A DNA stretch of 64,000 nucleotides from Candidatus Limnocylindria bacterium (GTDB taxonomy: Bacteria > Chloroflexota > Limnocylindria > QHBO01), in the NCBI GenBank assembly GCA_038250515.1, contig JBBSCG010000003.1:23675-87674 (forward strand), in the 5' to 3' direction. The notes beneath the pieces were generated by a model. The model searched no databases. It saw nothing but the letters and a program-made list of their open reading frames with translations, and was not told where the DNA came from. Shown here one piece after another: positions 14,216 through 62,983 of the stretch (its first letter is position 1; each line of letters begins with the position of its first letter). The position numbers and the translations under genes are program-made.

Positions 14216-14250
14216 TAGGCCGAGTCCCCCTGAGCCGATAGACTCCCGCC

Positions 14251-15477: not shown

Positions 15478-16645
15478 CGAGCGCCTCGTACAGAGCGACC
15501 GTCTGCTCAGCGATCGCGTCCCAGCCGAATTCTTCGACCGCCCGACGCCGGCCGGCCTTGCCCATGCGGGCGCGAAGCTCGGGCTGGGCCATGAGAGCGT
15601 TGATCGCATCGGCCAGGTCATGCTCGAACCGGTCTGTGTCAGGGGCGACCGGCACCAAGACGCCGGTCTCGCGGTCAGCCACCACCTCGGGAATACCGCC
15701 AACCGCGCTGGCGACCACCGCTGCCTGGCAGGCCATCGCCTCCAGGTTGATGATCCCGAACGGCTCATAGACCGATGGGCAGCAGAACAGCGCCGCATGA
15801 CTGTACAGCTGCCGCACCGCTTCGCGGCTGACCATCTCCGGAATCCAGACAACATTCGACCGATGCCGCCGCGCCTCGGCCACCCCGTCTTCCATCTCCC
15901 GCGCGATCTCCGGCGTGTCCGGCTGCCCGGCGCACAGCACCACGCCGATGCCCGGATCCAGGTGTTGGATGGCGCGCACCAGGTGCACGATCCCCTTCTG
16001 GCGAGTGATGCGACCGACGAACAGCACGTACGGCTGCGAGGGCTCGATGTTGTAGTGCTCGAGCGCGTCCCTCGTCGCCACGGGGTGATAGAACCCCGCG
16101 TCGATCCCGTTGTGAATGACGCTCACCTTTTCGGGCGCCACCTTGAACAGCCGCAGGATGTCGGCGCGCGTCTCGCTGCTGACCGCGATCACCGCGTCCG
16201 CCATCTCGAGCGCCGACCGCTCGATCCATGCCGAGACGTCGTAGCCGCCGCCCAGCTGCTCCCGCTTCCAGGGCCGCAGCGGCTCGAGCGAATGGACCGT
16301 TATGACCAACGGAATGCCGTACGCCAGCTTGGTCATGATGCCGGCGAAATGGGCGTACCAGGTGTGCGCGTGGACGACATCGGCCTCGACCGGCTGCGCC
16401 GCCATGCCGATGTCCCGGCTGAGCGCCGCGAACATCGGCTTCAATCGTTCATCGGTCGATGGCAGGTCGTGGGCGGCCGGAAAGCCGCGGATGCGCCAGC
16501 CGTCGGCCTGCTCGTCCTGCGCGCCGAACGTTCGCACCTCGACCTCGATCAGCCTGCGCAGTGCGCGCGTCAGCTCGCCGACGTGCACGCCGGCGCCGCC
16601 GTAGACGTTCGGCGGAAACTCGTTGGTCAGGATCAGCGCACGCAT
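15464..16645 (-). CDS. GT4 glycosyltransferase, GlgA/GlgM-like (glycogen or alpha-maltose-1-phosphate synthase family)
   Basis: N-terminus MRALILTNEFPPNVYGGAGVHV and a GT4 C-terminus EPFGIINLEAMA. Start refined to the ATG at complement 16643..16645. Confidence 0.8.
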   Translation of the reverse strand: MRALILTNEFPPNVYGGAGVHVGELTRALRRLIEVEVRTFGAQDEQADGWRIRGFPAAHDLPSTDERLKPMFAALSRDIGMAAQPVEADVVHAHTWYAHFAGIMTKLAYGIPLVITVHSLEPLRPWKREQLGGGYDVSAWIERSALEMADAVIAVSSETRADILRLFKVAPEKVSVIHNGIDAGFYHPVATRDALEHYNIEPSQPYVLFVGRITRQKGIVHLVRAIQHLDPGIGVVLCAGQPDTPEIAREMEDGVAEARRHRSNVVWIPEMVSREAVRQLYSHAALFCCPSVYEPFGIINLEAMACQAAVVASAVGGIPEVVADRETGVLVPVAPDTDRFEHDLADAINALMAQPELRARMGKAGRRRAVEEFGWDAIAEQTVALYEALVSRE

Positions 16646-16756
16646 GAGCACGTAGCCTACCGTCGGCGTCGGGCCGACTTGCAGCATTTGGTCGTAACGG
16701 CCAGCAGGGACGCAAATCGGCCCAATCGAGCCGGCTCGTTGGCCGACAGCAATCAG

Positions 16757-42447: not shown

Positions 42448-42846
42448 CTACACAGGCTCCCGCAGCGGAAGGCCATACGCCTTCATGGACCGATCGAACG
42501 TCAGGAGTGGCGACGCGCCTGCTTCACGGCACGCACCGACGATCAGCGCGTCCGGGATCGGGCGACCGGGTGCGCCGCGCGCCTGCACCAGCGCGTCGAC
42601 CGCCGTTTCGTTGCGCATGCCCAGCAGGACGATGTTCTCGCGCAGCAGCAGCTCGATCAGGCTGTGAATGATGTCGGCCTGGTCGACACCGTACTGGGTT
42701 CGCAGCACGTGTGCGCACTCAACGAGTCCCACCAGCGACAGTCCGATGCGCTGCGTGCCATTGATCACGCGCGCCGCCCGAGCGGCGGCTGCTGACGGAG
42801 TCCCGACGAGGTAACGGACGATCAGCGACGTGTCCGCACCGATCAC
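42448..42846 (-). CDS. vapC: PIN-domain toxin VapC
   Basis: PIN acidic residues (D5 ..., D near the C-terminus), 132 aa. Overlaps the upstream antitoxin. Confidence 0.8.
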   Translation of the reverse strand: MIGADTSLIVRYLVGTPSAAAARAARVINGTQRIGLSLVGLVECAHVLRTQYGVDQADIIHSLIELLLRENIVLLGMRNETAVDALVQARGAPGRPIPDALIVGACREAGASPLLTFDRSMKAYGLPLREPV

Positions 42847-43501: not shown

Positions 43502-43758
43502 GGATGCGGCTGAGCGCATCCCGCCGGTTCGTTCGGCGAGTGAAGAAGCTGCGAGAGCCGCAGGCGACCATGCTGCGTGCAGCGCTGCGTCGGTTCGCCG
43601 CGGACCCGGGCGATCCCCTCCTGCGCGTCCATAAACTGAAGGGCGAGCTGGCGGACTACTGGGCGTTCAGCGTCGACGACGACCTGCGCGTGCTGTTCCG
43701 ATGGAACGGCGACGAAGTCTTTCTGGTCAACCTCGGCTGCCACGAAGAGGTGTACTGA
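43498..43758 (+). CDS. relE: RelE/ParE-family toxin
   Basis: 86 aa. ...RVHKLKGELADYWAFSVDDDLRVLFRW...VFLVNLGCHEEVY. ATGA overlap with the antitoxin. Confidence 0.8.
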   Translation: MRMRLSASRRFVRRVKKLREPQATMLRAALRRFAADPGDPLLRVHKLKGELADYWAFSVDDDLRVLFRWNGDEVFLVNLGCHEEVY

Positions 43759-43766
43759 CGGTCGGG

Positions 43767-45740
43767 GTGACGACGGCAGCATCGGTCCTGGATGGCCTCA
43801 ATGAGGAACAGCGCGAGGCTGCCATGGCGACAAGCGGCCCGGTTGCCATCCTCGCAGGCGCGGGCACGGGCAAGACGCGAGTGATCAGCCACCGCGTCGC
43901 GTATGCGGTCGCGACCCGCGTCGTGGATCCCAAGCGCATCCTCGTCGTGACGTTCACCGAGAAGGCGGCGACGGAGATGAAGCATCGGCTGAGCCGGCTG
44001 GGACTGCCAGGGGTGGCGGCTTCGACCTTTCACTCGGCTGCCAAGCGACAGCTCGAGTTCTACTGGCCGCGTCTGCATGGCCAGCCGCTGCCGAATGTGC
44101 TGGATTCAAAGCTGGGCATTGTCATTCCACTCGCTCGCCAACTGCCCGGCGGATACAAGTTCACGCCAGCCAAAGACCTGGCCGATGAGATTGAATGGGC
44201 CAAAGCCCGTCGCATCGGTCCTGGGGAGTACGCGGCCGAGGCCGCGCGAGCGCATCGGGAGTCGCCCATTCCTGCCGACGTGTTTCAAACGGTGTATCGC
44301 CGCTACGAACAGGGCAAGCAGCGGGCGGGTGTCATCGATTTCGAGGACATGCTCAGCCTGGCGGTTGACCTGTACGAGACCGATGCGGATGCCGCCGCCC
44401 TCGTGCGGCAGCGCTACGACTGGTTCTCGGTCGACGAGTACCAGGACACCAACCGGCTGCAGGAGGATCTGCTTCGCCTGTGGCTGGGCGATCGACGCGA
44501 TCTCTGCGTCGTCGGCGATGAAAACCAGACGATCTACAGCTTCACCGGCGCGACCGCGGACTACCTGACGACCTTCAAGGACCGATATCCCGGCTGCCGC
44601 GTCATCAATCTCACGCAGAACTACCGCAGCACGCCGCAGATCCTGGCGCTGGCCAACCGGCTGATCGCGAGCTCGGGCCAACTGAGAGCGACGCTCGACG
44701 ACGGCAGCGAGCCAAGCCTGGTCGCCTACGCGAACGGGGCTCAGGAGGAATCGGCGATTGTCGCTGCGATTCGTCAACACGCGAGCAGGCAAATGCAGCT
44801 GACCGAGATCGCGATCCTGGTGCGCACCAACGCGCAGCTTGTGCCGTTCGAGTCGGCGCTGACTCGGGCGGGCATTCCGTTCACCGTTCGCGGCCAGCGC
44901 TTCTTCGCTCGGGCAGAGGTTCGGGCGGCACGGCAGGCGCTGAGCAGCGGTCGTGCAACCGGCACATTGGAAGAGGTGCTCGCAGCTCGATGGCGGACGA
45001 TCCTGGGCTTCGATGAGCAGGAGCCATCGGGTCCAGGTGCCGAGGCACGTGACCGACACGCGTCGCTGCTGACGCTGCTGGGCATCGCGCGGGAGCTCGT
45101 CGCACGCGAGCCGGACGCCACGGTCACCGACTACCTCACCGAGCTGCAGCGTCGCGATGGCGATGAGGCTGCAGCCGGCGGTGCGGGCGTGGTGCTCTCC
45201 ACGTACCACCGGGCGAAGGGACTCGAATGGGATGTCGTCTTCCTGCCGATGCTGGAGGATGGGACGCTGCCCAGTCGCCAGTCACTGAGCGACGACGCCG
45301 CGGTGCGGGAAGAGCGACGGCTGCTGTACGTCGGCATCACGCGGGCACGCAAACAGTTGGCGGTGTCCTGGGCAGCGCAGCGCCTGAACCCCAAGGGCGG
45401 CGTCGCACGGGCGAAGCCCTCACGCTTCATTGCGGAGCTGCATCCAGGGCGCGTGATGCGCCCGACGGCTGCAACAGCGGTTCCACCCGCCGGCGCGGCC
45501 CCGGCCAAGGGCGCCGCGGCCGACCTGTACGAGGCGCTCCGGTCGTGGCGCATCAAGCGTGCGCGAACCGACGGCGTGCCTGCGTACGTCGTCGCCGACA
45601 ACAAGACGCTCACCGCAGTGGCGACGGAGAGACCGATGAACGCGGCCGAGCTGCTCGCCGTTCCCGGCATGGGACCGCACCGCGTCGCGACCTATGGAGC
45701 GGAGATGCTGCAGATCATCGCTTCGGCGTCTGAGAAATAG
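43767..45740 (+). CDS. UvrD/PcrA-family SF1 DNA helicase with C-terminal HRDC-like domain (UvrD2-like)
   Basis: Walker A GAGTGKTRV, DEYQDTN motif, VTFTEKAA motif, C-terminal HRDC-like tail (LYEALRSWR ... VVADNKTL). GTG start assumed. Confidence 0.85.
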   Translation: MTTAASVLDGLNEEQREAAMATSGPVAILAGAGTGKTRVISHRVAYAVATRVVDPKRILVVTFTEKAATEMKHRLSRLGLPGVAASTFHSAAKRQLEFYWPRLHGQPLPNVLDSKLGIVIPLARQLPGGYKFTPAKDLADEIEWAKARRIGPGEYAAEAARAHRESPIPADVFQTVYRRYEQGKQRAGVIDFEDMLSLAVDLYETDADAAALVRQRYDWFSVDEYQDTNRLQEDLLRLWLGDRRDLCVVGDENQTIYSFTGATADYLTTFKDRYPGCRVINLTQNYRSTPQILALANRLIASSGQLRATLDDGSEPSLVAYANGAQEESAIVAAIRQHASRQMQLTEIAILVRTNAQLVPFESALTRAGIPFTVRGQRFFARAEVRAARQALSSGRATGTLEEVLAARWRTILGFDEQEPSGPGAEARDRHASLLTLLGIARELVAREPDATVTDYLTELQRRDGDEAAAGGAGVVLSTYHRAKGLEWDVVFLPMLEDGTLPSRQSLSDDAAVREERRLLYVGITRARKQLAVSWAAQRLNPKGGVARAKPSRFIAELHPGRVMRPTAATAVPPAGAAPAKGAAADLYEALRSWRIKRARTDGVPAYVVADNKTLTAVATERPMNAAELLAVPGMGPHRVATYGAEMLQIIASASEK

Positions 45741-46137: not shown

Positions 46138-46521
46138 TCAGGAAGGCGACGCGACGACGAGTCCGACAGCACGAGCAGCATCGGCCAAGCGAAGGTCATA
46201 TGTGACGAACGCCTCGAGCGTCTCAGCGAACGCGAGGGCGGAAGCCAGGTGGATCGCATCCAGGGATCGAAGGGTGTTGGGTAGCAAACGCCCAGCGAGC
46301 TCCGCAATCGCTGCATCCAGCTCCACGTAGTCCAGGAAGCCCATCACGGCCGGAATCTCGCCCAATGCGTCAGGCCTGCGCGACCCCACTGCCCGCGCGA
46401 TCTCAACAGACAGAACGCGGCTGCTGACGCGTGCGGAACAGCTCTCCAGATACGAGATAAGCGCACTCGTTTCCGCCTCCGCGACCACGAGCTTCACTGC
46501 GGCCGACGCATCGAGGTACAC
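46138..46521 (-). CDS. vapC: PIN-domain toxin VapC
   Basis: MYLDASAAVKLV ... PIN fold signature, 127 aa. Confidence 0.75.
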   Translation of the reverse strand: MYLDASAAVKLVVAEAETSALISYLESCSARVSSRVLSVEIARAVGSRRPDALGEIPAVMGFLDYVELDAAIAELAGRLLPNTLRSLDAIHLASALAFAETLEAFVTYDLRLADAARAVGLVVASPS

Positions 46522-49438: not shown

Positions 49439-49903
49439 ATGAGACTCGATTACGCGCACGAACTTCCCGAGGCATCACGAGCGATGAGCCAGCTCGAGCG
49501 CGTCGTCGAGGCGAGCACGCTGGAACCGAACATGCGCGAGCTCATCAAGCTCCGTGCCTCGCAGATCAATGGCTGCGCGTACTGCGTGGACATGCACACG
49601 AAGGACGCCCAGGCGATGGGCGAGGATGCACAACGGCTGCACCTGGTCGCGGTCTGGCGCGAGACAGCGGTGTTCAGCCCTCGGGAGCGGGCGGCCCTCG
49701 CCTGGACCGAAGCGCTCACGCTTCTGCCCGAATCCGCGGCGCCCGATGATGTCTATGAGGAGGTCGCACGGCAGTTCGGACCCGCGGAGCAGGTCGCCTT
49801 GACACTGGCGATCATCGCGATCAACGGATGGAATCGCCTCGCGATCGGCTTCCGGCGACCGGTCGGCGCCTACGTGTCGCACCGTCATGCAGTGGCGGCG
49901 TGA
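49439..49903 (+). CDS. Carboxymuconolactone decarboxylase / AhpD-like peroxidase-fold protein
   Basis: CAYCVDMH (CxxCxxxH) motif. GAAGGAG RBS 8 nt upstream of the ATG. Confidence 0.8.
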   Translation: MRLDYAHELPEASRAMSQLERVVEASTLEPNMRELIKLRASQINGCAYCVDMHTKDAQAMGEDAQRLHLVAVWRETAVFSPRERAALAWTEALTLLPESAAPDDVYEEVARQFGPAEQVALTLAIIAINGWNRLAIGFRRPVGAYVSHRHAVAA

Positions 49904-51016
49904 GGCCGATAGCCTTGCCTCGGCGCCCCGGTCCCCATCGCCGACGACCCGCGATGCACCCACTGGGTATGACATCCCTCAGTCGAACCTTCGGCATAGG
50001 TGAAGATCTCGACCGGCCGGCCGTCGGGGCCGACGGCGATGGGCGGCGGCGCGTCCGTATCGGTCAGGGCGTAGCGGGCGGCGAATTCGTGGATGGCCTT
50101 GCTCGAGCGCCGGTTCTCGTTGAGGTAGTAGACCGGCGGCGACTCCGGCATGACGACGCCGAGCTCGTCGGGCTGGCGGGCGTGGTAAAGGTCCTGGTTG
50201 GCGTCGCCGAAGACGTACATGATCCCCCGTTGGCGGTCGCGCAGCAGGTCGAGCAGCGGCAGCCACCAGACCGCGTCGAGATCCTGGCGCTCGTCAACCA
50301 CGATGGCGTCAAACCGATGGTCCGGCAGGCGCGTGAGTGCCTGGTCCAGCACGTTCGGCAGCTCATCGAAGTAGGCCGTGTCGCGCACCGGGGTGGGACC
50401 GATGAGCCCGGCATCGGTCCCCAGCCGCTCCGCCAGGCGATGGAAGGTGCTGACCGTCACGCCGCTGGACCTGACCGATGGTCGCGGCCAGGTGCTCGGC
50501 CAGCGGCCGGTTGAAGCAGGTGAGCAGCACCTCGAAGCCCTGGGCGGCCAAGCGGCGCGCCTTCTCGGCGGCGAGCAGCGTCTTGCCCGAGCCCGCCACG
50601 CCGAGGACGAGTGCCCGACGCTGGGCGTTGAGCATGTCGAACGCGCCGAACTGCAGGGCGCTCAGTCCGATGCGGGCCTCGTCGGATGCGACGTCGGCGG
50701 CGAGCGGCGAGGCGATCTCGATGGGCCGCGCCAGCAGGGCGTCGAGCGCTTCCATGCCCATCCTGCCGGGTGGCCCACCGTCGGCCGACGCATCGCCCGA
50801 GGCGCTCCACCAGTCGAAGATCTCGCGCACCCGCTCGCCGACGCGCTCGAGGTCGCCGTGGTCGATGACGATCTTGCGCGGCCCATCCGCCGGCGCGGGA
50901 TGCGGGTCGTAGGTAGCATCCGGGAAGGCGACGGCGTGCGTGAATCGCACCTCGTGGGCCGGCCAGGCCGGCAGGTCGTGGCAGACGCGCCGCAGGGCGT
51001 GCATCGCGCGGGTCAC
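49885..51016 (-). pseudogene. Frameshifted and C-terminally truncated SF1 helicase (nuclease-related N-terminus + UvrD-like ATPase core)
   Basis: ORF 50363..51016 carries Walker A GVAGSGKTLLA. The downstream frame ORF 49885..50460 continues with TVSTFHRL, DAIVVDERQDL (Walker B/DExx) and later helicase motifs. The two frames are joined only by a shift near 50460. The helicase C-terminal domain is missing. Confidence 0.6.
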
Positions 51017-51049: not shown

Positions 51050-51547
51050 TCAGCGGCGGCGATCGATCTCGTCGCGCAGGGCGCCGAGCACCTCCACCTC
51101 GATGAGATCCTTCGGCCGACCGGCGGCCCGCTTCATCCTGATCAAGTCGTCGAGCGCAGCGACCTGGATCGTGAGCCCGTCGAGATCGGTGGCGATCGCG
51201 GTGCGCACCAGGTCGTCGTACCCACCTGTGCCCTGGGGGGTGGCGAGGATGTCGAAGTCGCCGGCATCGGTGGTGAACGTGAACGAGTCGCCGGCCGCCA
51301 GGGTCCGGGCGTCGAGCATGAACGGGACCTCCACATCGACGCCGCGCAGGCGGGCGCCCAAGTCGCGGAGGACCCCCGTCAGCGCCTCCTGGTTGGGCCG
51401 ATCGCGCGCATGGCAGATGTCCAGGTCGCGCGTCATGGTCGGTGAGCCAAGGATTCGGCCGGCGAAGGCGCCGATGACGACGTAGCGCACGCCGGCATCG
51501 TTGAGAGCGCGAAAGATCCGGAGCGGATCAAAGCGTGCCGGCCTCAA
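51050..51547 (-). CDS. Nucleotidyltransferase-fold protein (TA/abortive-infection-like NTase)
   Basis: 165 aa. GVRYVVIGAFAGRILG and DLDI motifs of minimal nucleotidyltransferases. Confidence 0.6.
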   Translation of the reverse strand: MRPARFDPLRIFRALNDAGVRYVVIGAFAGRILGSPTMTRDLDICHARDRPNQEALTGVLRDLGARLRGVDVEVPFMLDARTLAAGDSFTFTTDAGDFDILATPQGTGGYDDLVRTAIATDLDGLTIQVAALDDLIRMKRAAGRPKDLIEVEVLGALRDEIDRRR

Positions 51548-51909
51548 GGTCGGCCGGACCGATCGAAGACCGCGGCGGCCGCGGCATCGGCGGCAGCCAG
51601 GCGCGCGCGCTCGCCGGGGGTCAGCCGCAGCAGCTCTCGGATCTGGGTCCGATCGACCCCCTCGCCCAGCGCCGGGGCCAGCTCCAGGGTGTAGCCGCTC
51701 GCGCGCAGAAGCCGATCCAGGGTGTCGGCGCGCGGGGTCAGCAAGCCGAGCTCGATCCGCGCCACCGTCGATTGCGGCACACCGGCAGCCTGGGCCAACT
51801 CACGCTGCGTCATCTGGCAGGCGCGTCGAACGTGACGGACGAGTCGTGCGGCATTCACGGAACGCAGCATAGCTGATAGCATTTGAGCTAGCAGCGGACG
51901 CGACCTCAA
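51544..51909 (-). CDS. XRE-family HTH transcriptional regulator (putative antitoxin partner of the NTase)
   Basis: MTQRELAQAAGVPQSTVARIE HTH. ATGA overlap with the downstream NTase gene. Confidence 0.7.
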   Translation of the reverse strand: MRSRPLLAQMLSAMLRSVNAARLVRHVRRACQMTQRELAQAAGVPQSTVARIELGLLTPRADTLDRLLRASGYTLELAPALGEGVDRTQIRELLRLTPGERARLAAADAAAAAVFDRSGRP

Positions 51910-52241: not shown

Positions 52242-52721
52242 CTACGACGACGTGCCCGTAGCGCGCCCGCCGAGGCCGATGAGCTCCGCGCGCAACGCCT
52301 GCACGAAGGCTCCCGGTTCGGACACGCGGATCCGATCGGTTCGGAAGTCGCGGAGATTGAAGGTCACCAGCCATCGACACTCTGCCGCGAGCGCGGCGGC
52401 CAGGATCGGTGCGTCCTTCGGATCGGCCTCTCTGGCATCCACCAGCTCCGCCGCCAGCTCGGCGGAAACCATCGGCAACGGCTGGCACGAAAGCTCGATC
52501 AGCGTGCGGAAGGCGGGCAGGGCCGCCGGGAGCTTCTCCGCCAGGTTGCGCTCGGCCTCGATGCGCGCCTGCTCCGGCACACCGACCTCGATGATCCCCA
52601 GCTCGCCGAGTTGGAGCACCACGTGGCTCGCCCCCGCGACCGATGCCGCCCCTGCAAAGAGCGCGTCCGCGTCGAGGCAGATGCGCAGGCGAGGGGAAAG
52701 CGAGGGGTCAGGGGCGCTCAA
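52242..52721 (-). CDS. PIN-domain protein (VapC-like toxin)
   Basis: RICLDADALFAG N-terminus and a PIN-like acidic pattern. Overlaps the upstream AbrB-type gene. Confidence 0.6.
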   Translation of the reverse strand: MSAPDPSLSPRLRICLDADALFAGAASVAGASHVVLQLGELGIIEVGVPEQARIEAERNLAEKLPAALPAFRTLIELSCQPLPMVSAELAAELVDAREADPKDAPILAAALAAECRWLVTFNLRDFRTDRIRVSEPGAFVQALRAELIGLGGRATGTSS

Positions 52722-52980
52722 GTCGCTCGGCGTGATACCGGGCGCGCTGCTCGCGGAGGCCGTCCAACAGCTCCTCCAGACTCAGGCCGGCGCCGGTGCG
52801 CAGATACTCGATCTCGGCGGAGAGCTTGTCCGCGACGCTCAACTTGGGCGACAGGAGGATCGCGCCGTCGAGATCGACGAGTGTCAGCGGATCGCCGTCG
52901 GCCAGGTCGTACCGCTCGCGGATGGGTGCAGGCAGGGTTACGGTTCCTCTGCCGCGTATCTGCACAGTCTTTGTCTGCAT
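52708..52980 (-). CDS. AbrB/SpoVT-type antitoxin
   Basis: VQIRGRGTVTLPAPIRERYDLADGDPLTLVDLDGAILLSP swapped-hairpin motif. Confidence 0.7.
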   Translation of the reverse strand: MQTKTVQIRGRGTVTLPAPIRERYDLADGDPLTLVDLDGAILLSPKLSVADKLSAEIEYLRTGAGLSLEELLDGLREQRARYHAERLERP

Positions 52981-54289: not shown

Positions 54290-54790
54290 AGTATCTCGGC
54301 CTCGGTGCAGCACCTGGTCGACCATTCTCGTGTTGCGGCCGCGAACGAAGACCTCGTTGGATTGGAGCTGCGTTGGGGGGCCAGACTGTCTGCTCGATGC
54401 CTGGCGGGGGGGGTCAGGCTCCGCGACGCCATCGGGCAGGTCGATGCTGCGGCTATTGACGTGCTGTTGCCGATATCGGCCCGCAGCCGGACGGACCACT
54501 ATTCCTGCCGCACTCGCGGCGGATAACCGCGCAACACGATCGCTTCGATAACGAGGAAGACGGTGTTCAGCGCGAAGCCGATGCTCACCAAGCACCTGGC
54601 GGCGCATGGGGACAATCGATGCCTCCTGCTGACCGATGGCATGGCCAACGTCGGCTGCACCGAGCCGGACCAGCTGGCCGCGTACGGCGCCGACCTGCGC
54701 GCGTCGGGTGTGACCACCACCACGTTCGGCATGGGCGAGCAGTTCGACGACGAGCCGCTGAGCCCGGTCGTGGCCGCCGCGGCCGTCCCC
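54290..54790 (+). pseudogene. Decayed remnant of a vWA-domain gene, paralog of 61724..62983
   Basis: ORF 54563..54847 reads NRCLLLTDGMANVGCTEPDQLAAYGADLRASGVTTTTFGMG, matching NRCLLLTDGLANIGLTEPVALAAFAKDLRASGVATSTFGVG in the intact gene. An upstream frame carries ARSRTDHY, like ARGSTDLHGG. Frames are broken. Confidence 0.55.
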
Positions 54791-54839
54791 GGTGAAGCAT
54801 CGGCGGTCGGCGGCCAGCTTCTGACGCTAGAGTTGTCGG

Positions 54840-55826
54840 GTGGTTGATAGGAGCCCCGCCCTCGACTGGCTTCTGGCATCCGATGAGCCAGCCAACCGCT
54901 ACCGGACCCAGACCTGGCTGCTCGACCAGCCCGAAACCGATCCGGCAGTCCGGCAGGAGCGCGCGCGCGTCGCCGATGGCCCGATCGTGTCGACCCTTCT
55001 CGACTTCCCGGAGCCGAAGCTCGACCCGTACCGCAAGTGGTTCGGGCTGCATTGGCGCCTCGTGTCACTGGCCGATTTCGGGTTACCGGCGGACGGGGCG
55101 GAGGTTCGCGCCAGGCTCGATGACGGGGTCGATCGCGAGCTGGCCTGGATCGCCGACCCGCGCCACCTCGAGGCCGTCAAACGGATTGATGGGCTCTACC
55201 GCGCGCATGCCGCGATGGAGGGCAACGCCCTCTACGCCGCCAGTCGATTCGGCCACGCCGATGACGAGCGCGCACGCCGCCTGGTCGACAAGCTCCTCGA
55301 ATGGCAGTGGCGCGACGGCGGCTGGAACTGCGATCGCCAATCATCGGGGTACCGGTCGTCATTTCACGAGAGCTGGGCGACAGCCATCGGCCTGGCGGCC
55401 TACCACGACGCCACCGGTGACGCCAATGCCCTGGCCGCCGCGCGCCGGACGGCCGAATTGCTGCTGGAGCATCGGCTGTTTCGTGGCCTGAGCGACCATC
55501 GTCCGATGCCCGGCAGCTTCGCGGCCCTCCACTGGCCCGCGTACTGGCATTACGACTTCCTGGGTGGCCTGCGCGTCGTCCGGGCGGCCGGCATGCTGTC
55601 GGATCCGCGCGCGACCGATGCGCTCGACCTCCTCGAGTCGCTCCAGCTGCCGAACGGCCGCTTCCAGGCCAAACGCGCGTGGTGGCAGGCCGGGCGCCAC
55701 GTGACATCGCCGGTCGACGTGGTTGACTGGGGCAAGGGCCGGCCCAGCGAGGTGCTGACGCTCCATGCCCTGTCGCTGCTCAAGGCGTCGGGACGCTGGA
55801 AGACAGGTCCCGCGGATGGTTCGTAA
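54840..55826 (+). CDS. Hypothetical protein with alpha/alpha-toroid (prenyltransferase/terpene-cyclase-like) repeat features
   Basis: LEWQWRDGGWNC and LQLPNGRF motifs resemble QW/prenyltransferase repeats. GTG start. Confidence 0.5.
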   Translation: MVDRSPALDWLLASDEPANRYRTQTWLLDQPETDPAVRQERARVADGPIVSTLLDFPEPKLDPYRKWFGLHWRLVSLADFGLPADGAEVRARLDDGVDRELAWIADPRHLEAVKRIDGLYRAHAAMEGNALYAASRFGHADDERARRLVDKLLEWQWRDGGWNCDRQSSGYRSSFHESWATAIGLAAYHDATGDANALAAARRTAELLLEHRLFRGLSDHRPMPGSFAALHWPAYWHYDFLGGLRVVRAAGMLSDPRATDALDLLESLQLPNGRFQAKRAWWQAGRHVTSPVDVVDWGKGRPSEVLTLHALSLLKASGRWKTGPADGS

Positions 55827-55890: not shown

Positions 55891-56085
55891 TCAATCCTCT
55901 TGCGGTGGGCCGCTCGGAATAGATCGGAGCGCCTCGTTCACGGCTTGGGAGGTTGGAAACCGCTTCGCGACGTCGGGGTCGAGGTGGACAACTGAGCCCC
56001 GCTCCGAGATCTGACGACTGTGCCGGCCGCGCGTGCCATACCGGAAGTCGTATTCCTCTCGCGGCTCGTCCTCAGGCTTCTTCAT
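55891..56085 (-). CDS. BrnA-like (DUF4415, RHH) antitoxin, apparently orphan
   Basis: EEYDFRYGTRG ... VHLDPDVAKRFPTSQAVNEALRSI matches the BrnA pattern. No BrnT-sized ORF upstream. Confidence 0.55.
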   Translation of the reverse strand: MKKPEDEPREEYDFRYGTRGRHSRQISERGSVVHLDPDVAKRFPTSQAVNEALRSIPSGPPQED

Positions 56086-56276
56086 AGTCGTGTCTCTCGA
56101 GCGAGGTCGCTCGCGTTGCAAAGATCAGTCGGATCTTACTCGCCACTCCAGAGCAGGCGGACAGTACGCATCGGGGCTTACTGAGCAATTACCGCGCGCT
56201 TACCGTCCGCTGCCACTCGCGACACGCAAGCTGTCACGCCCTCGCGCTACCGTATGGATGGGAGGGAGTGCCCTAC

Positions 56277-59200
56277 ATGCAATTGATCGACGGCAAGCCC
56301 GTCTTCTCGGCCACGGATCTTGTCGGCTACCTCGCCTGCGAGCATCTGACCGCACTCGAGACCGCGGCGCTCAGCGGCCTGGTCGAACGCCCGAATCGGC
56401 CCGATCCGGAGCTCGACGTCATCCGCCGCCGCGGTGAGCAGCACGAGCAGCGGTACCTCGGTGGGCTGCGTGCCGAGGGCAAGTCGGTGGTGACCATCGA
56501 GCGGTACGAGGACGAGCAGCGCGGCGCGCGGCTCATTCGCCAGGCGGACGAGACGATCGCCGCCATGCGCGAGGGCGCCGATGTCATCTACCAGGCCACC
56601 TTCTTCGACGGCCGATGGCTCGGCTATGCCGACTTCCTGCTGCGCGTGGACGATGCCGCCCGACCGTCGGCGTGGGGGCCGTACCACTACGAGGTCGCCG
56701 ACACGAAGCTGGCGCGGCACGTCAAGGCGGGCGCGGTGCTGCAGATCTGCTCGTACGTCGACCAGCTCGAACGACTCCAGGGGGTGCGGCCGGCGACGAT
56801 GAAGGTCGTCCTGGGCGGCAGCGCGCACGAGGTCGCCGAGCTGCGCACCGACGACTACATGGCCTACTACCACGCGGCGAAGCGGCGATTCGAGGCAACG
56901 GTGCTCGGCACCGATGATGCACCTGCGCCGCCGCCGGCATATCCGCCGGCGAGCACCTACCCGGAGCCGGTCGAACATTGCGCCGTCTGCCGCTGGGCGC
57001 CCGAATGCCAGGCGCGGCGGCGAGCCGACGACCACCTCTCGCTCGTCGCCGGCATCAGCGCCCGACAGCGCAAGGAGCTCGGCAAACGTGACATCGGCAC
57101 GCTGACCGAGCTTGGCACCACGCCGATCCCATTTGATCCGTCGCTCAAGGACGGCGAGGCGAGCATGGAACGTGTCCGAGAGCAGGCCCGCATCCAGCTC
57201 GAGGGCCGCGGCCGCACGCCGCCGCTCCACGAGCTGCTGCCGGTCGAGCCGGAGCGCGGCCTGGCGATCCTGCCCGAGCCCGATGCGGGCGACCTCTTCT
57301 TCGACATCGAGGGCGACCCATTCGCGTTCGACGATGGGATCGACTACCTGTTCGGGTTCCTCGACACGGCGGACGATTTCACCGCCTTCTGGTCGTTCGA
57401 TGCCAGCGGAGAGGTCTCGCTGGAGGGCGAGAAGCTCGCCTTCGAGCGGTTCATGGACTTCGTGATGGCCCGCCTCGCCGCGTACCCCAACATGCACATC
57501 TACCACTACGCGCCATACGAGCCGACGGCGCTGAAGCGGCTGATGGGCCGCCATGCGACGCGCGAAACGGAGGTCGACAGGCTGCTGCGCGGTGGCGTGC
57601 TGGTCGACCTCTTCCGCGCGGTGCGGCAGGGGGTTCGCGCATCGGTCGAGAGCTACTCGATCAAGAAGCTGGAGTCGATCTACGGCTTCCACCGCGAGAT
57701 CGACCTGCGCGACGCGGGATCGAGCATCGTGGCCTTCGAGGAGTGGCTCCAGTTGGGTGAGGGCGAGCGTCCATCGTCCGACATCCTGCAGCGGATCCAG
57801 ACCTACAATCGCGACGACGTGGTGAGCAACGCGCGCCTGCGCGACTGGCTGGAGCAGCTGCGCTTCGAAGTCGAAAGCGAGACCCGCACGCCGGTTCCGC
57901 GTCCGGCGGACCGCGTTGCCGAAGCGCCCGAGGAACTGACGGAGGCCGATGCGCAGGTCCAGCGCGTCGCCGACCGGCTGACCGACGGCGTCCCCGTCGA
58001 TCCGGCCGAGCGATCCGACGAGCAGCAGGCGCGATGGTTCCTCGCGCAGCTCCTGTCATGGCATCGGCGCGAAAACAAGGCGACGTGGTGGGACTTCTTC
58101 CACCGCATCGCCCTGACGTCGGAGGAGCTCGTCGATGAGGATGGCGCGTTGGGGCAGCTCGAGCTCGTGTCGGTGAGTCCACCGTACAAGCCGACACCCC
58201 GCAGCGGCCAGCGCCGGAAGGCGACGTATCGCTTCCCTCCCCAGGAGCATAAGAACGTCGAGTCGCGTTCCGATCTGTTCGATCCGGCGCTGGCGCAGGA
58301 GGCCCCGGCCGCCCCGAAATGGGACTGGCGTGTCAATGCCGACCTCGCCGAGCTGGACGACAAGACCGCCACGGTCACCCTGCTGTGGAAGGGCGAGGCG
58401 CCGATTCGCCACCCGGAAGCCCTCGTGGCCGTGAACCGGATCGATGACAAGGTGCTGCGTGCGGCGCTGCTGCGACTCGGTGAATGGGTGGCGGAGTACG
58501 GCATCGACGCCGACGGACCCTCCCGCGCTGCCCGCGACCTGCTCCTCAGGCGTGCGCCGCGCTGCGGGCATGCAGCGGAGGCGCCACTCAAGCAACCCAA
58601 TGAAACGGATCTCGATGCCGCTTGCCGGCTGATTGGGCAGCTGGACCGCGGCACGCTCGCCATCCAGGGGCCGCCCGGCTCGGGCAAGACCTACACCGGG
58701 GCGCGGATGGCGGTCGAGCTGCTGCGCGCCGGCAAGAAGGTCGGCATCAGCGCAACGAGCCACAAGGTGATCGGCAACTTCCTCGACATGCTGCTGAAGG
58801 CCGGCCGCGAGGCGGGCGTCGCGGTCAACGCGGTCCAGCGCGCGGACCCTGAGCAGGGCCTCGACCACGACGTGGAGCTCGCCAGCGACGGCGCCAGGGT
58901 CCGCAATGGCCTGGCCGATGGCACGTTCAATGTCGCCGCGGGCACGCCCTGGCTCTGGGCCCCTGAACAATGCTGCGACCTCGTCGACGTGCTGTTCGTC
59001 GACGTGGCCGGCCAGATCTCGCTTGCCAACGTCCTGGCCATGGGTGCCGCAACCGGCAGCATCGTCCTGCCGGGCGATCCCCAGCAACTCGACCAGCCGC
59101 TGCAGGGTACGCACCCGCTTGGGGCGGACAAGTCGGCCCTCGCCCACCTCCTCGGTTCGCACGACACCATGCCGGAGGCACTCGGCCTGTTCCTCGAGCG

Positions 59201-59801
59201 AACATGGCGGCTGCACCCACGCATCACGGAGTTCACCTCCGAGGCGTTCTACGAGGGGCGCCTCCTCTCGCGGGAAGGCCTGGAATCCCAGGAGCTGCGT
59301 GGGCCGGCACCGCTCGGGGGCGTCGGGCTGCGGCTCTCGCCATCGGTCCACAGCGGAGACGCGAACGAGTCCGACGAGGAAGCTCGACAGGTCGCCGAAC
59401 TCGTGCGGAACCTGGTCGAAGGACGGTCGACCTGGGTCAACCAGGACGGGGAGGAGCGCCCGGTGACCTGGACCGACGTCCTGGTCGTCGCTCCGTATAA
59501 CGCACAGGTCGGCGCGATTCGTCAGCTGCTGCCCGCCGAGGCGCGCGTCGGGACGGTCGACAAGTTCCAGGGCCAGGAGGCCCCGATCAGCATCTACTCC
59601 ATGACGACCAGCTCACCCGAGGACGCGCCGCGCGGCATGGACTTCCTCTACTCACGCAACCGCCTGAACGTCGCGACCTCCCGGGCGCGGTGCGTCGCGG
59701 TGGTCGTCGCGTCTCCAGAGCTGTTGCGGGTCCGCGCCCGAACGCCGGAGCAGATGCGCCTGGCAAACGCCCTCTGCCAGTTCGTGGAGTTAGCGACCTA
59801 G
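56277..59801 (+). CDS. RecB-like nuclease (TM0106 family) + RNase H-like domain + SF1 DNA2/AAA_11-AAA_12-type helicase fusion protein
   Basis: N-terminal Cys cluster CAVCRWAPEC and DxK-type nuclease region, FFDIEGDP RNase-H-like motif, Walker A GPPGSGKT, VLFVDVAGQ, VDKFQGQE, VATSRAR helicase motifs. GGGAGGGAG RBS 9 nt before the ATG 56277. Confidence 0.85.
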   Translation: MQLIDGKPVFSATDLVGYLACEHLTALETAALSGLVERPNRPDPELDVIRRRGEQHEQRYLGGLRAEGKSVVTIERYEDEQRGARLIRQADETIAAMREGADVIYQATFFDGRWLGYADFLLRVDDAARPSAWGPYHYEVADTKLARHVKAGAVLQICSYVDQLERLQGVRPATMKVVLGGSAHEVAELRTDDYMAYYHAAKRRFEATVLGTDDAPAPPPAYPPASTYPEPVEHCAVCRWAPECQARRRADDHLSLVAGISARQRKELGKRDIGTLTELGTTPIPFDPSLKDGEASMERVREQARIQLEGRGRTPPLHELLPVEPERGLAILPEPDAGDLFFDIEGDPFAFDDGIDYLFGFLDTADDFTAFWSFDASGEVSLEGEKLAFERFMDFVMARLAAYPNMHIYHYAPYEPTALKRLMGRHATRETEVDRLLRGGVLVDLFRAVRQGVRASVESYSIKKLESIYGFHREIDLRDAGSSIVAFEEWLQLGEGERPSSDILQRIQTYNRDDVVSNARLRDWLEQLRFEVESETRTPVPRPADRVAEAPEELTEADAQVQRVADRLTDGVPVDPAERSDEQQARWFLAQLLSWHRRENKATWWDFFHRIALTSEELVDEDGALGQLELVSVSPPYKPTPRSGQRRKATYRFPPQEHKNVESRSDLFDPALAQEAPAAPKWDWRVNADLAELDDKTATVTLLWKGEAPIRHPEALVAVNRIDDKVLRAALLRLGEWVAEYGIDADGPSRAARDLLLRRAPRCGHAAEAPLKQPNETDLDAACRLIGQLDRGTLAIQGPPGSGKTYTGARMAVELLRAGKKVGISATSHKVIGNFLDMLLKAGREAGVAVNAVQRADPEQGLDHDVELASDGARVRNGLADGTFNVAAGTPWLWAPEQCCDLVDVLFVDVAGQISLANVLAMGAATGSIVLPGDPQQLDQPLQGTHPLGADKSALAHLLGSHDTMPEALGLFLERTWRLHPRITEFTSEAFYEGRLLSREGLESQELRGPAPLGGVGLRLSPSVHSGDANESDEEARQVAELVRNLVEGRSTWVNQDGEERPVTWTDVLVVAPYNAQVGAIRQLLPAEARVGTVDKFQGQEAPISIYSMTTSSPEDAPRGMDFLYSRNRLNVATSRARCVAVVVASPELLRVRARTPEQMRLANALCQFVELAT

Positions 59802-59911: not shown

Positions 59912-60121
59912 TTAGACCGCCTCGACTATTCCGACACCAGTTGTCGGCGAAGGGACGGCCTCGCCAGTCGCCCGCATGGCTTCGATATGAAGCTGGATCG
60001 CCGCGCTGATGCGGCGCTCGACTCCCGCGCGGGTTCTCCCGGTGGCAACGCAGCCGGGCAGGTCCGGCACGTACGCAGCCCAGTTCCGATCGGTTTGTTC
60101 AAAGACGACTGCGTACTTCAT
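59912..60121 (-). CDS. hicB: HicB-family antitoxin
   Basis: 69 aa. YAVVFEQTDRNWAAYVPDLPGCVATGRT, typical HicB/UPF0150. Confidence 0.8.
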   Translation of the reverse strand: MKYAVVFEQTDRNWAAYVPDLPGCVATGRTRAGVERRISAAIQLHIEAMRATGEAVPSPTTGVGIVEAV

Positions 60122-60321
60122 GGGTCCTCATCTCGATCGGCGCCTGCTTGTCGGAGGATACTCCGATAGGTTCCTGGCGGCAGATCATCCGAAAGATCTC
60201 CTGCAACTGTCACGGTGCCTCGACGTACCGGATGCTGCAACTGGCGGTGACTGCCGGCGCGACGCACTTCACGCCATCCCGCCTCGCGAAGCCTACGGAG
60301 CACATCTCGGACCTTGGGCAC
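60118..60321 (-). CDS. hicA: HicA-family mRNA interferase toxin
   Basis: 67 aa. VLRRLREAGWREVRRAGSHRQLQHP, typical HicA (YcfA-like). Confidence 0.8.
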   Translation of the reverse strand: MPKVRDVLRRLREAGWREVRRAGSHRQLQHPVRRGTVTVAGDLSDDLPPGTYRSILRQAGADRDEDP

Positions 60322-60450
60322 ACACAGACAGTACGGATCAGCCCTTACCGCGCTGTTACCAGTTCCTTATTTGAACGGAGCTCATGGACCCGGCGCGAGC
60401 CCACCCAACGCGACACACAAGCTGTCACGACACATCCCGATACTCCCCGT

Positions 60451-61710
60451 ATGAACAGCAGCGTCACCATCACCGCGGACCGCATCGTCGTCGAGCATCT
60501 GGAGCTCCACGACCCGCAACTGGCCGCCTTCGTCGCCGAGCGCGACCCGGGTGAGCGGCCGGCGCTGGTGGAGCGCGCTCTGCGCATCGGCCTCATGACC
60601 ATCTGTAACGCCGGCGTCAGCCTGACGACCGACGTCGTGCGAACCGAGTTCACACGCCTCAGCGAGCGCCTGAAGGCGACGAACGCGCGCGCCGCGGAGG
60701 CGCTCGAGCAGCAGTTGCGTGCCAACTTCGCCGATGGCGACGGCCGACTGCCCCGGACCCTCGAGGCCTTCCTGGGCGACGAGGGCAAGCTGCGCCGGCT
60801 TGTGGGCGAGCTGTTCGATCCGAATCGGCGCGAGGGCGCCATGGGCCAGCTCACCACCCTGCTGCAGCGCTACTTCGACGGCGACGCCTCGCAGCTCGCC
60901 CGCCTGCTGGACCCGACCCGCGAGGGCTCGCCGCTGCACCAGTTCCGCAACGAGGTGACCGGCGAGTTCCGCTCCCTCCAGGAGCGGCTGACCGCGCTGG
61001 AGGCCGGCGAGAAGGCCCGGGCCGAGGAGCGCGCTCGCGGCACCGCCAAGGGCGTCGATTTCGAGGACGCGCTGGAGGCCCGCCTCGCCGAGCTGGCCCG
61101 CGCGCAGGGTGACCTGCTGGAGCGCACCGGCGCCGAAGCGGGAGACAGCCTTCGCAGCAAGAAGGGCGACTTCGTGCTGGGCATCGACCCCAGCCGCACG
61201 CGCGGCGTGGACCTGCGGGTGGCCATCGAGGCCAAGGACCGCACGGTGAGCCTGCGCCGATTCAGCACTGAGCTGGCGGAGGCGAAGGCGAACCGCCGCG
61301 CCGCCATCGCGCTCGCCGTCTTCACACCGCATAGCGCACCGCCCGGCGTGGCACCGCTGACCGTCATCGGTTCAGACGTCTACTGCGTGTATGACCCGGA
61401 GGCCGATGACGCCATCGCCCTGGAGGCCGCCGTCCGCCTCGCCCGCGCGCTGGCGCTGGCCAGCCTACGCGAGTCGACCGTCCAGCTCGACGTGCCGGCC
61501 GTGCAGGACGCGCTCGCCGAGATCGTGCGCCAGGTGGGCGAGGTGCAGGGCATGAAGTCGCGCCTCACCTCCATCTCGAATGCGGCCGGCGACGTGAGCC
61601 GAACCCTCGACATGATGCGGATGGGCATCCTGCGCAGCGTCAAGGACGTTGAGGCGCAGCTGGACGTCGTCGATTCCAAGACCGATACCGCTGGCGCGCT
61701 GAGCGCCTGA
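60451..61710 (+). CDS. Hypothetical coiled-coil protein with C-terminal PD-(D/E)xK-like motif
   Basis: 419 aa from the ATG for MNSSVTIT. Long helical/charged N-terminal region, then GDFVLGID-x11-VAIEAKD. No Walker motifs. Confidence 0.65.
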   Translation: MNSSVTITADRIVVEHLELHDPQLAAFVAERDPGERPALVERALRIGLMTICNAGVSLTTDVVRTEFTRLSERLKATNARAAEALEQQLRANFADGDGRLPRTLEAFLGDEGKLRRLVGELFDPNRREGAMGQLTTLLQRYFDGDASQLARLLDPTREGSPLHQFRNEVTGEFRSLQERLTALEAGEKARAEERARGTAKGVDFEDALEARLAELARAQGDLLERTGAEAGDSLRSKKGDFVLGIDPSRTRGVDLRVAIEAKDRTVSLRRFSTELAEAKANRRAAIALAVFTPHSAPPGVAPLTVIGSDVYCVYDPEADDAIALEAAVRLARALALASLRESTVQLDVPAVQDALAEIVRQVGEVQGMKSRLTSISNAAGDVSRTLDMMRMGILRSVKDVEAQLDVVDSKTDTAGALSA

Positions 61711-61723
61711 AAGAGAGCAACCC

Positions 61724-62983
61724 GTGACCGCATTCAGTGCCCGAACCGACCGCCACCTCGTCCGCACTGATGGACGCAGCCGGCGCCACGTCCTCCTCTG
61801 CCTCACCGCACCGAAGCCCCGCCGCAAGCCGGCGCAGCGCCCGCCGGTCAATGTCGCCTTCGTCCTGGACCGCAGCGGCTCGATGGGCGGGCAGAAGATC
61901 GCGCTGGCCAAGTACGCCGTCGAGCGTGCGCTCCAGGGGCTCGGCTCCAGGGACCGATTCAGCGTCGTGACCTACGACGACCAGGTGGAGAGCGTCGCGA
62001 GCAGCCGCACCGCCACCGCCAAGGCAAAGCAGGATGCGCTCCTTCGCCTCCAGACAGTCGACGCGCGCGGCAGCACCGACCTCCATGGCGGCTGGACCGC
62101 CGGCGCGGAGCAGGTCAAGTCGCACTTGGCCACCGACGGCGTGAACCGATGCCTGCTCCTGACCGATGGACTCGCCAACATCGGCCTCACCGAGCCGGTC
62201 GCCCTGGCCGCATTCGCGAAGGACCTGCGCGCCTCCGGCGTCGCGACCAGCACCTTCGGCGTCGGCGCCGACTTCGACGAGGTGCTCCTGACCGCCATCG
62301 CCGATGCCGGCGGCGGCCACTTCTACTTCATCGGTCGCCCGGAGCACATCGTGGACGCCATGACCAGCGAGCTCGGCGAGCTGCTCGAGACGGTCGCGCG
62401 CGAGGTCGTGGTCGACATCAAGCACCATCCGGCGCTCGAGCTCCAGGCGCTCTCCCCGGTCGTCGACGCGGCCGCCATCCCCGGCGAGCTGCGCCTGCTC
62501 ATCGGCGACCTCGTCGCCGGCCAGAACGTGGAGCTCGTGCTTTCAGTGCGCTTTCCGGCCGCCGATGCCGGAATCGCGACGAGCGCCTTCTTCACCACCG
62601 GCGACCGCGACGGCGTCCTCAAGGCCGATGGCTGCACCCTGGCCTGGCGGCATGCCGAAGGTGCGGATGTCGACGCCCAGCCGCGCGACCGCGAGGTCGA
62701 CCGTGCCGTGGCCCGCATCTACGCCGCACGCGCCCGCATGGAGGCGGTGCACCTCAATCGGCTGGGCGAGTATCGCGATGCCCGTCATGCGCTCAGGGGC
62801 GTCGCGCGGCGCATCGCCGGCTACGCGGGCTCGGACACCGAGCTCAAGGAGCTCGCGGCCCAGCTCATCGCCGAGGAAGCCGCCTTCTCAGCACCGATGG
62901 CCGAGCTCGACCGCAAATCGACCCACTTCACCTCCGCCAACATCCAGCGCTCGCGCGATCAGACGGGCCAGGCGCGGCGATAG
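61724..62983 (+). CDS. vWA-domain protein with intact MIDAS and C-terminal extension
   Basis: VAFVLDRSGSMGG MIDAS and LLLTDGLAN, then a C-terminal domain of about 200 aa. 13 nt downstream of the previous gene. GTG start. Confidence 0.75.
   Translation: MTAFSARTDRHLVRTDGRSRRHVLLCLTAPKPRRKPAQRPPVNVAFVLDRSGSMGGQKIALAKYAVERALQGLGSRDRFSVVTYDDQVESVASSRTATAKAKQDALLRLQTVDARGSTDLHGGWTAGAEQVKSHLATDGVNRCLLLTDGLANIGLTEPVALAAFAKDLRASGVATSTFGVGADFDEVLLTAIADAGGGHFYFIGRPEHIVDAMTSELGELLETVAREVVVDIKHHPALELQALSPVVDAAAIPGELRLLIGDLVAGQNVELVLSVRFPAADAGIATSAFFTTGDRDGVLKADGCTLAWRHAEGADVDAQPRDREVDRAVARIYAARARMEAVHLNRLGEYRDARHALRGVARRIAGYAGSDTELKELAAQLIAEEAAFSAPMAELDRKSTHFTSANIQRSRDQTGQARR

Follow-up and report, generated by a model that had tools for sequence, protein, structure and literature searches.

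We identified a candidate single-polypeptide DNA-processing enzyme in a 64,000-nucleotide stretch (hereafter, the window) of contig JBBSCG010000003.1 from a Candidatus Limnocylindria bacterium of the Chloroflexota. The gene, an open reading frame (ORF) at 56277..59801 on the + strand, encodes 1174 amino acids plus a stop codon, and by sequence and predicted structure its product joins in one chain the signatures of a Cas4/Dna2-type nuclease, a DEDDy exonuclease and a superfamily 1B (SF1B) helicase. It also has a predicted promoter of its own, conserved among relatives, which combines a palindromic box with the lack of a -35 box. With modest confidence, we favor the reading that this is a stand-alone, single-polypeptide DNA-end-processing enzyme, induced by DNA damage or single-stranded DNA (ssDNA) under the control of a WYL-type regulator. 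Below, L-numbers denote loci or contigs carrying relatives of the gene or matches to its promoter box.

Within the longest ORF, which opens at 56268, the ATG at 56277 is the favored start codon, since a Shine-Dalgarno-like GGGAGGGAG (56260..56268, +) lies 8 nt upstream and homologues share the N-terminus MQLIDG. NCBIfam TIGR03491 (TM0106 family RecB-like putative nuclease) matched residues 12-525 (E=1.6e-75; 254.8 bits against a cutoff of 97.45) over model positions 3-462 of 462, which places the protein in the family across the whole model. Pfam RNase_H_2 (PF13482) matched residues 340-525 (1.4e-23; 84.1 bits against a cutoff of 22; model positions 1-164 of 165) and AAA_12 matched residues 967-1146 (3.5e-24); AAA_11 and AAA_30 gave weak matches near the Walker A region, below the Pfam cutoff. 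The helicase part matched IGHMBP2, Upf1, Sen1 and DNA2 among PDB sequences, and the same type of search with the N-terminal module returned nothing beyond a marginal match to a helix-hairpin-helix (HhH) of NusA. An initial annotation of the window had described this ORF as a fusion of a nuclease, an RNase H-like segment and an SF1 helicase. Profiles and predicted structure agree with that domain reading, and each of the motifs quoted for it (FFDIEGDP, GPPGSGKT, DVAGQ, QGQE and TSRAR) is found in the translation; taken as a whole, that annotation was partly confirmed.

Conserved residues were read from a 26-sequence alignment of full-length relatives at 37-57% identity. The Cas4/Dna2-like PD-(D/E)xK nuclease (56277..57026, +; residues ~1-250) is assigned by Foldseek and by a four-cysteine signature of the iron-staple type. 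Its residues C21, D119, D142, K144, Q156, Y160, C235, C238 and C244 are invariant or nearly so in family alignments, and C21 plus C235-x2-C238-x5-C244 reproduces the one-plus-three cysteine pattern of the Cas4, AddB and DNA2 iron-staple nucleases. There follows a low-confidence HhH-like DNA-binding segment (57030..57206, +; residues ~252-310, DDHLSLVAGI...), whose motif is conserved and whose profile match to the C-terminal HhH repeat of NusA is marginal (E about 1.5). The predicted RNase H-fold DEDDy-type 3'-5' exonuclease (57279..57866, +; residues ~335-530) is supported by the RNase_H_2 profile, by Foldseek and by a DEDDy signature, D343-x-E345, E415, D434 and Y510-x3-D514, all invariant or nearly so, in which we infer the assignment of acidic residues to the third and fourth DEDD positions. 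Next come a helical stalk and a β-barrel (57867..58601, +; residues ~531-775, including a conserved WHRRE..WW), delimited by AlphaFold2 secondary structure and the Foldseek span. In the model these resemble the 1B/stalk accessory domains of Upf1-like SF1B helicases, and Foldseek alignments to IGHMBP2 and Upf1 span ~640 C-terminal columns, exceeding two RecA domains. The SF1B (Upf1/DNA2-like) helicase core (58602..59798, +; residues ~776-1174) is backed by Pfam, PDB sequence matches and Foldseek; its Walker A motif GPPGSGKT is read at 58668-58691 (+), and the SF1 motifs from GPPGxGK(T/S) to TSRA are conserved across the alignment.

AlphaFold2 modeled the full-length protein with a predicted local distance difference test score (pLDDT) of 87.7 and a predicted template modeling score (pTM) of 0.83, and a separate model of residues 1-532 reached a pLDDT of 90.1. 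When the full model was compared with the PDB by Foldseek, IGHMBP2, Upf1 and Sen1 matched the C-terminal 640 residues, and mouse Dna2 was the sole entry aligned across both nuclease and helicase. For the model of residues 1-532, the first domain matched Cas4 8d3l_I (template modeling score 0.58 on the target), Dna2 5eaw/5ean and Cas4 4r5q; the second domain matched the exonuclease region of the family-B polymerase 5mdn_A (217 columns, root-mean-square deviation (rmsd) 4.1, prob 1.00), with further matches to ERI1, PolC-exo and apPOL-exo.

The promoter box was first noticed through a repeat search of the window, as a 21-nt sequence occurring twice. One copy, CGCGACACGCAAGCTGTCACG (56218..56238, +), is predicted to serve as an operator or activator site; its right arm, TGTCAC, falls at about -28 to -23, and a predicted -10 element TACCGT (TAnnnT; 56248..56253, +) lies 9 nt past it. 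The second copy, CGCGACACACAAGCTGTCACG (60409..60429, +), stands upstream of the ATG at 60451 and is followed by a -10 GATACT at 60439-60444. Allowing up to three mismatches, the 64 kb contain exactly these 2 sites, against 0.03 expected. The box is an imperfect palindrome, and alignment of 13 promoters gave the orthologue consensus cGTGACAGGCGAGCTGTCACg, in which a 5-nt spacer separates arms of 8 bp. It is kept ahead of the Chloroflexota orthologues in L001, L002, L005-L008, L010, L013, L025, L031 and L052, and in most orthologous promoters a TAnnnT follows 9 nt after the box and the start codon 3-30 nt further on. When a weight matrix derived from 12 sites was applied to 375 kb of the window and related loci, almost all of its matches fell in these promoters; it also recovered the L031 promoter, absent from the training set, and found no box upstream of the Ku and LigD genes. 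The conservation of an operator in a promoter without a -35 box argues for conditional expression.

The layout of this promoter resembles those of WYL-controlled genes. In mycobacteria, PafBC recognizes the consensus tGTCgg(N10)tA(N3)T with its GTC element at -23 to -28 (~-26), and this ssDNA-loaded WYL-domain activator substitutes for -35 recognition, a mode termed sigma adaptation (PMC8635444). The focal promoter has the same geometry, with TGTCAC-N10-TACCGT at 56232-56253, the GTC element at ~-26, N10 to TAnnnT and no -35 box, and so do the orthologous promoters. The two differ in that PafBC is a heterodimer with a non-palindromic site reading tGTCgg, whereas the focal box is palindromic and reads TGTCAC. 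A palindrome just upstream of the -10 element is what is found for SiwR, a homodimeric WYL factor that binds a palindrome between -35 and -10 and responds to genotoxic stress (PMC10693628).

PafBC, SiwR and DriD are WYL regulators of the ssDNA-sensing damage response, and genes for helix-turn-helix (HTH)-WYL-WCX regulators adjoin members of the TM0106 family. Such a regulator lies immediately upstream of the family gene at six loci (L027, L033, L047, L053, L056 and L058) from Rhodothermales, Gamma- and Alphaproteobacteria, Actinomycetota and Melainabacteria. If each genome has 2-5 WYL genes, chance alone should give, by a rough estimate, ~0.1 immediate adjacencies among 73 loci. WYL regulators are also nearby in L005 and L110, and in L100 one is divergent from a box. 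The region between the WYL gene and the family gene of L047 carries GTGACAG-ATT-CTGTCAC, with the same arms as the Chloroflexota box. Moreover, a relaxed pattern detected PafBC-like motifs upstream of actinobacterial members at 8 of 73 loci, against 2.9 expected.

Among public metagenome contigs, 31 satisfied both the box and the -10 rule. A family member (43-75% identity to the window protein) starts just downstream in 20 of the 31, a figure inflated because the search pattern was built from the gene's own promoters. Three further matches (L094, L107 and L108) precede an operon of a Metallophos gene and an AAA_27/AAA_23 gene that is SbcD/SbcC- or YhaO/YhaN-like; in these soil metagenome contigs (L108 1021-3213) the two genes overlap behind the box and -10, and the pair looks like a second operon of the regulon. 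One match has a UvrD-type helicase downstream, and the remainder include an ARPP-1 domain protein (PF20208; L101 1272-1921) and an alpha/beta hydrolase. The non-family genes behind the box have the same promoter geometry and include recognizable DNA-repair genes. Together, a box shared with SbcDC-like and UvrD-like genes and the recurring WYL neighbors indicate a DNA-damage or ssDNA-induced role, and the view of the initial annotation that repair and defense could not be told apart from sequence was too pessimistic.

In the window itself, the second box stands upstream of a two-gene module (60451..62983, +), in which the gene for a 419-aa protein without a family match (60451-61710) precedes one for a vWA protein (61724-62983). 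As the module carries the same box, it is predicted to be co-regulated with the focal gene, and since its -10 GATACT is only 6 nt ahead of the ATG at 60451, its transcript is predicted to be leaderless. The 419-aa protein was also considered as an RmuC-like candidate, an assignment that we rejected because it has no detectable similarity to the RmuC neighbors of the family or to the PDB.

We tentatively propose, as a possible though on balance rather doubtful extension, an undescribed WYL-controlled damage regulon in Chloroflexota, and probably other phyla, that would be marked by cGTGACAG-N5-CTGTCACg in PafBC-like geometry and would have the focal enzyme as its flagship effector. If true, the promoter logic of sigma adaptation would extend beyond Actinobacteria, and these would be the first evidence of PafBC-style promoters outside that group. 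The palindromic box is new here and predicts a small regulon and a testable regulator-operator pair.

By architecture, the closest characterized relatives of the protein are eukaryotic DNA2 and Bad, the latter compared through its published description. Bad from Geobacillus stearothermophilus (WP_053413574; Wilkinson et al. 2020) is an Fe-S ssDNA endonuclease and 5'->3' helicase whose cellular role is unknown according to its authors, who mention a second class in mycobacteria and Rhodococcus and argue against straightforward orthology with DNA2 (PMC7430649). Like Bad, the focal protein has an N-terminal four-Cys RecB-family nuclease, a large central region and a C-terminal SF1B helicase, and both are stand-alone and sporadic. 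Bad is 1245 aa long with nuclease residue D150 and Walker A K815, and the corresponding values here are 1174 aa, D142 and K804; the mycobacterial second class of Bad is paralleled by TM0106-family members in Mycolicibacter and Mycolicibacterium. The two differ in that the central region of Bad is without recognizable domain per its authors, whereas the focal protein has a clear RNase_H_2/DEDDy exonuclease there. In addition, Bad is annotated as an AAA ATPase and not as TM0106 family, and in Geobacilli bad adjoins a Type III-like methyltransferase, a partner that is not conserved across 74 family loci.

Eukaryotic DNA2 (mouse, 5EAN/5EAW/5EAX) likewise consists of an Fe-S PD-(D/E)xK nuclease followed by a β-barrel/stalk and an SF1B helicase, and the N-terminal iron-staple RecB-family nuclease of the DNA2/Bad group is found in the focal protein by both sequence signature and fold. 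DNA2 nevertheless shares only 11-15% identity with it, the domain orientations are not superposable (rmsd about 25 Å), and DNA2 lacks the DEDDy exonuclease and the HhH insert; it is also essential and ubiquitous in eukaryotes, whereas the TM0106 family is patchy. For residues ~1-250, the best fold match is Cas4 (type I-C, 8D3L; Pcal_0546, 4R5Q), with which the nuclease has in common the N-terminal Cys plus C-x2-C-x5-C and the D..D/ExK..QxxxY motifs. The focal locus differs from Cas4 in having no CRISPR-Cas context and in the fusion of the nuclease to an exonuclease and a helicase. The TM0106 family is one that is known to databases and experimentally untouched, and that differs from DNA2 and Bad by its extra exonuclease domain.

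In the damage-induced reading that we favor, DNA damage would lead a WYL-type ssDNA-sensing transcription factor to activate the gene within a small repair regulon, to which the module at 60451..62983 would also belong in the focal genome. By analogy with Bad and DNA2, the helicase would load on a free 5' ssDNA end or flap and move 5'->3', and the loaded strand would be threaded into the Fe-S nuclease and cut; the DEDDy domain would meanwhile trim 3' ends. Because a helicase-fed nuclease would be combined with a 3'-trimming exonuclease, one protein could resect or clear both strands of broken or flapped DNA. Under the more doubtful regulon proposal above, the enzyme would carry out end resection with one polypeptide, a function parallel to that of RecBCD, AddAB or AdnAB. 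If the damage-induced reading is true, the enzyme would be a new player in bacterial double-strand-break and flap processing and would provide a physiological context for the enigmatic bacterial DNA2-like (Bad) proteins.

Contrary to the initial annotation, the helicase motifs of the focal copy are not complete. SF1 helicases use the Walker B glutamate to activate water for ATP hydrolysis, and family members carry DEAGQ at this motif. In the focal protein the motif reads DVAGQ, owing to a GTG codon for Val910 (59004..59006, +) that is one base from GAG. Position 910 is Glu in 260 of 261 aligned full-length relatives and Val solely in the focal protein; accordingly, the family has an SF1B helicase with intact ATPase motifs and the focal copy does not. 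A second unusual codon, CCG for Pro932 (59070..59072, +), just ahead of motif III GDPQQL, is one base from CTG. At this position the family has L, V, I or M, and Pro, 22 residues after V910, is unique to the focal protein. Since Val replaces the glutamate of ATP hydrolysis, the V910 allele should bind ATP without turnover; if the substitution is real, the motor probably binds but does not hydrolyze ATP, so that only ATP-independent nuclease activities would remain. It would then be a natural separation-of-function variant.

The alternative that the locus holds nothing special, being a crippled or decaying allele or one whose odd codons are both assembly or consensus errors of a metagenome-assembled genome (MAG), strikes us as improbable. 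E910V and L932P are indeed both unique, both single-base changes and only 66 nt apart. The protein's cluster consists of one member on one contig, and a vWA fragment and a frameshifted UvrD-like gene (both described below) signal decay in the vicinity. Against this, of the 194 columns with at least 90% conservation in the 261-sequence alignment, the protein deviates at just 1, compared with a family median of 6, and that one column is the Walker B Glu. The frame is intact, GC content at third codon positions (GC3) is 0.87, and the box, -10 and Shine-Dalgarno-like sequence are all intact; together with the conserved columns, these features are unlike those of a pseudogene. The only independent contig, Logan contig L090, covers the first 463 residues and so stops short of position 910, and SRR19962013 carries the 5' part; look-ups of the focal protein and of HicB returned nothing.

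The TM0106 family is very large, with 7977 of 8000 scored candidates reaching E<=1e-10 and 3296 representatives of 50%-identity clusters at E<=1e-30, at least 150 of them full length at 37-57% identity. Those nearest to the focal protein, at 65-74% identity, come from MAGs of Candidatus Limnocylindria and other Chloroflexota. In a scan of one genome per species, full-length copies occurred in at least 12 phyla, the lineages represented being Chloroflexota, Acidobacteriota, Actinomycetota (including Mycolicibacter and Mycolicibacterium), Alpha-, Beta- and Gammaproteobacteria, Bacteroidota, Verrucomicrobiota, Planctomycetota, Myxococcota, Eremiobacterota, Melainabacteria and Pelagibacteraceae. 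Rv1251c may be a member in M. tuberculosis. Literature searches on TM0106 returned only unrelated corrosion papers, with no biological mention, and those on RNase_H_2/PF13482 only papers on human RNASEH2. An enzyme of ~1150 aa carried by thousands of bacteria from at least a dozen phyla, and by dozens of plasmids, is without a publication on it.

This distribution bears on a second alternative, in which the protein is a constitutive housekeeping replication factor, a processor of Okazaki flaps or stalled forks and true equivalent of DNA2, and the palindrome is a LexA-type or unrelated operator. The DNA2-like architecture, with Dna2 as the sole full-length structural analogue, speaks for it, as do the stable chromosomal contexts among metabolic genes in which several Chloroflexota keep the gene. 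We nonetheless regard it as very unlikely, since many lineages lack the family, plasmids carry it, the exonuclease domain has no counterpart in DNA2, the authors of the Bad study opposed simple DNA2 orthology for that protein, and the operator conserved in a promoter without a -35 box argues for conditional expression.

All-against-all clustering of the five genes on either side of the gene at 74 loci revealed no conserved operon partner, the largest cluster covering 4 loci, which suggests that the protein works as a single-gene unit. Within Chloroflexota sublineages synteny is stable (L001/L006, L002/L005, L007/L008 and L008/L031; copies 49-88% identical), and in these pairs the family gene and its flanking genes show about equal divergence, which indicates ordinary vertical inheritance. 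The initial annotation had posed single-copy core genes in a conserved housekeeping neighborhood as the alternative to a defense gene; this holds for synteny within these sublineages and fails elsewhere, where the gene is patchy, plasmid-borne and sometimes in defense islands. The context in the window differs from that in related genomes, where homologues of the upstream neighbor do not adjoin the family gene.

Two kinds of recurrent neighbor point to repair. LigD is found within 6 kb of the family gene in L002, L005, L010 (with Ku) and L015. In L010, a complete Chloroflexia MAG chromosome, a 381-aa gene, Ku and LigD come next in this order on the strand of the family gene (8001-16754), so that the non-homologous end-joining operon begins 1.4 kb downstream of the family gene. 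RmuC is adjacent in L032, L058, L061 and L063 (within 1.5 kb in L061 and L063). In L032 (Xenophilus; 11421-13436) and L058 (Obscuribacterales; 11424-12956), from unrelated phyla, RmuC starts 15-30 nt past the stop codon of the family gene on the same strand.

Several observations weigh against a damage-induced repair enzyme, and many of them suit a third alternative: a single-gene anti-phage or anti-plasmid nuclease-helicase, silenced by a WYL factor as are BREX by BrxR and CBASS by CapW, and freed upon infection, so that incoming DNA, linear or replicating, would be degraded. Matches occur in 69 plasmid records, 59 of them full length and 26 of the 69 typed as conjugative. The plasmid contexts include a Roseomonas copy beside SNF2, VapBC, an integrase and an HNH nuclease, ubiquitin-like E1/E2 genes in Phenylobacterium and a helicase trio near repABC in Ensifer. 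Among 133 immediate neighbors there are some strong PADLOC matches (HmaC, HKD+Snf2, SoFic, PDC-S01, DrmD, NERD+UvrD and McrBC), counted without a control set and hence no basis for a claim of defense-gene enrichment; many other immediate neighbors are housekeeping genes, such as major facilitator superfamily transporters, an RNA polymerase subunit and cytochrome bd. Two mycobacterial copies, 58% identical, have no flanks in common, and one of them is beside GHKL-ATPase-like and serine-recombinase-like ORFs, both judged by sequence alone. The distribution is patchy, with identity that does not track taxonomy and similarity that crosses phyla, the surroundings in the window are rich in toxin-antitoxin (TA) genes, and bad of Geobacillus has its methyltransferase neighbor. 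WYL regulators also govern defense systems, so WYL control alone does not separate repair from defense. Other points concern the regulator and the regulon: the 64-kb window holds no WYL gene, and the identity of the regulator is itself an inference; the palindrome could instead be the site of a LexA-like or other dimeric repressor; and the list of regulon genes is short, in addition to the inflated share of family members among the metagenome matches. Finally, the E910V substitution may make the focal copy non-motor or non-functional, and the literature holds no experiment on any TM0106-family member.

We consider the defense alternative unlikely, though far from negligible. Neither PADLOC nor NCBIfam gave a system-specific full-length match for the focal protein, and no model named Nhi matched. 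The helicases of Mokosh (MkoA/MkoC), DpdJ and PLuB resemble it in their Upf1-like SF1 helicase core (E 1e-16 to 1e-33, residues ~780-1170), but these matches are confined to that core, and the nuclease types, partners and architecture differ. No methyltransferase, sensor or other partner is conserved, and the TA genes near the focal gene are not conserved as neighbors of the family gene in relatives; the link to anti-phage systems drawn by the initial annotation is thus unsupported at this locus. Moreover, SbcDC-like and UvrD-like repair genes also carry the box, the gene has diverged at roughly the rate of its neighbors within stable Chloroflexota synteny, LigD/Ku and RmuC are recurrent neighbors, and no phage-encoded copy was found in 50,697 phage records. 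Repair and defense roles are not mutually exclusive.

Two of the plasmid loci have gene arrangements of their own. In L089 (Phenylobacterium plasmid NZ_CP101284.1, 5609-12342), a cluster of multiubiquitin, E2/UBC, ThiF-type E1 and DUF6527 genes stops 20 nt before a hypothetical gene, which is followed by the TM0106-family gene, all on one strand. In L088 (Ensifer adhaerens plasmid NZ_CP118613.1, 2642-12363), a recombinase and repABC flank three close co-directional genes, whose products are a helicase-related protein of 1071 aa, a hypothetical protein of 1034 aa and the TM0106-family protein, possibly a multi-gene variant of the system.

The surroundings of the focal gene in the window are TA-dense, as had been described. 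Pfam supports hicB (59912-60121, -) and hicA (60118-60321, -) beside the gene and a MazE/PIN pair at 52242-52980, and an Xre-type antitoxin-like HTH adjoins a nucleotidyltransferase-like ORF (51050-51909). The ORF at 55891-56121 (-), previously called brnA, had no Pfam match at E<=0.01 and no NCBIfam match at E<=0.1, and that name was not retained. The repeat search gave only the promoter box and a vWA fragment, with no convincing flanking repeats that would mark a mobile cassette. This fragment, a 94-aa ORF at 54563-54844, is 58% identical over 66 residues to the vWA protein of the downstream module (61724-62983; residues 130-195 of the latter) and 70% identical to its gene across 197 nt. A paralogue has probably decayed to this remnant, which suggests that the DNA around the focal gene was rearranged.

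Further upstream, two overlapping ORFs in different frames (49885-51016, -) jointly resemble a UvrD/NERD-type helicase, with a Walker A motif GVAGSGKT and weak PcrA/UvrD matches, and are probably a frameshifted pseudogene. An intact UvrD/PcrA-type helicase with a RecQ/RNase D-like (HRDC-like) C-terminal tail is encoded at 43701-45737 (+), with no box upstream. It is flanked by ORFs at 42451-42846 and 46141-46521, whose N-termini are PIN-like in sequence appearance.

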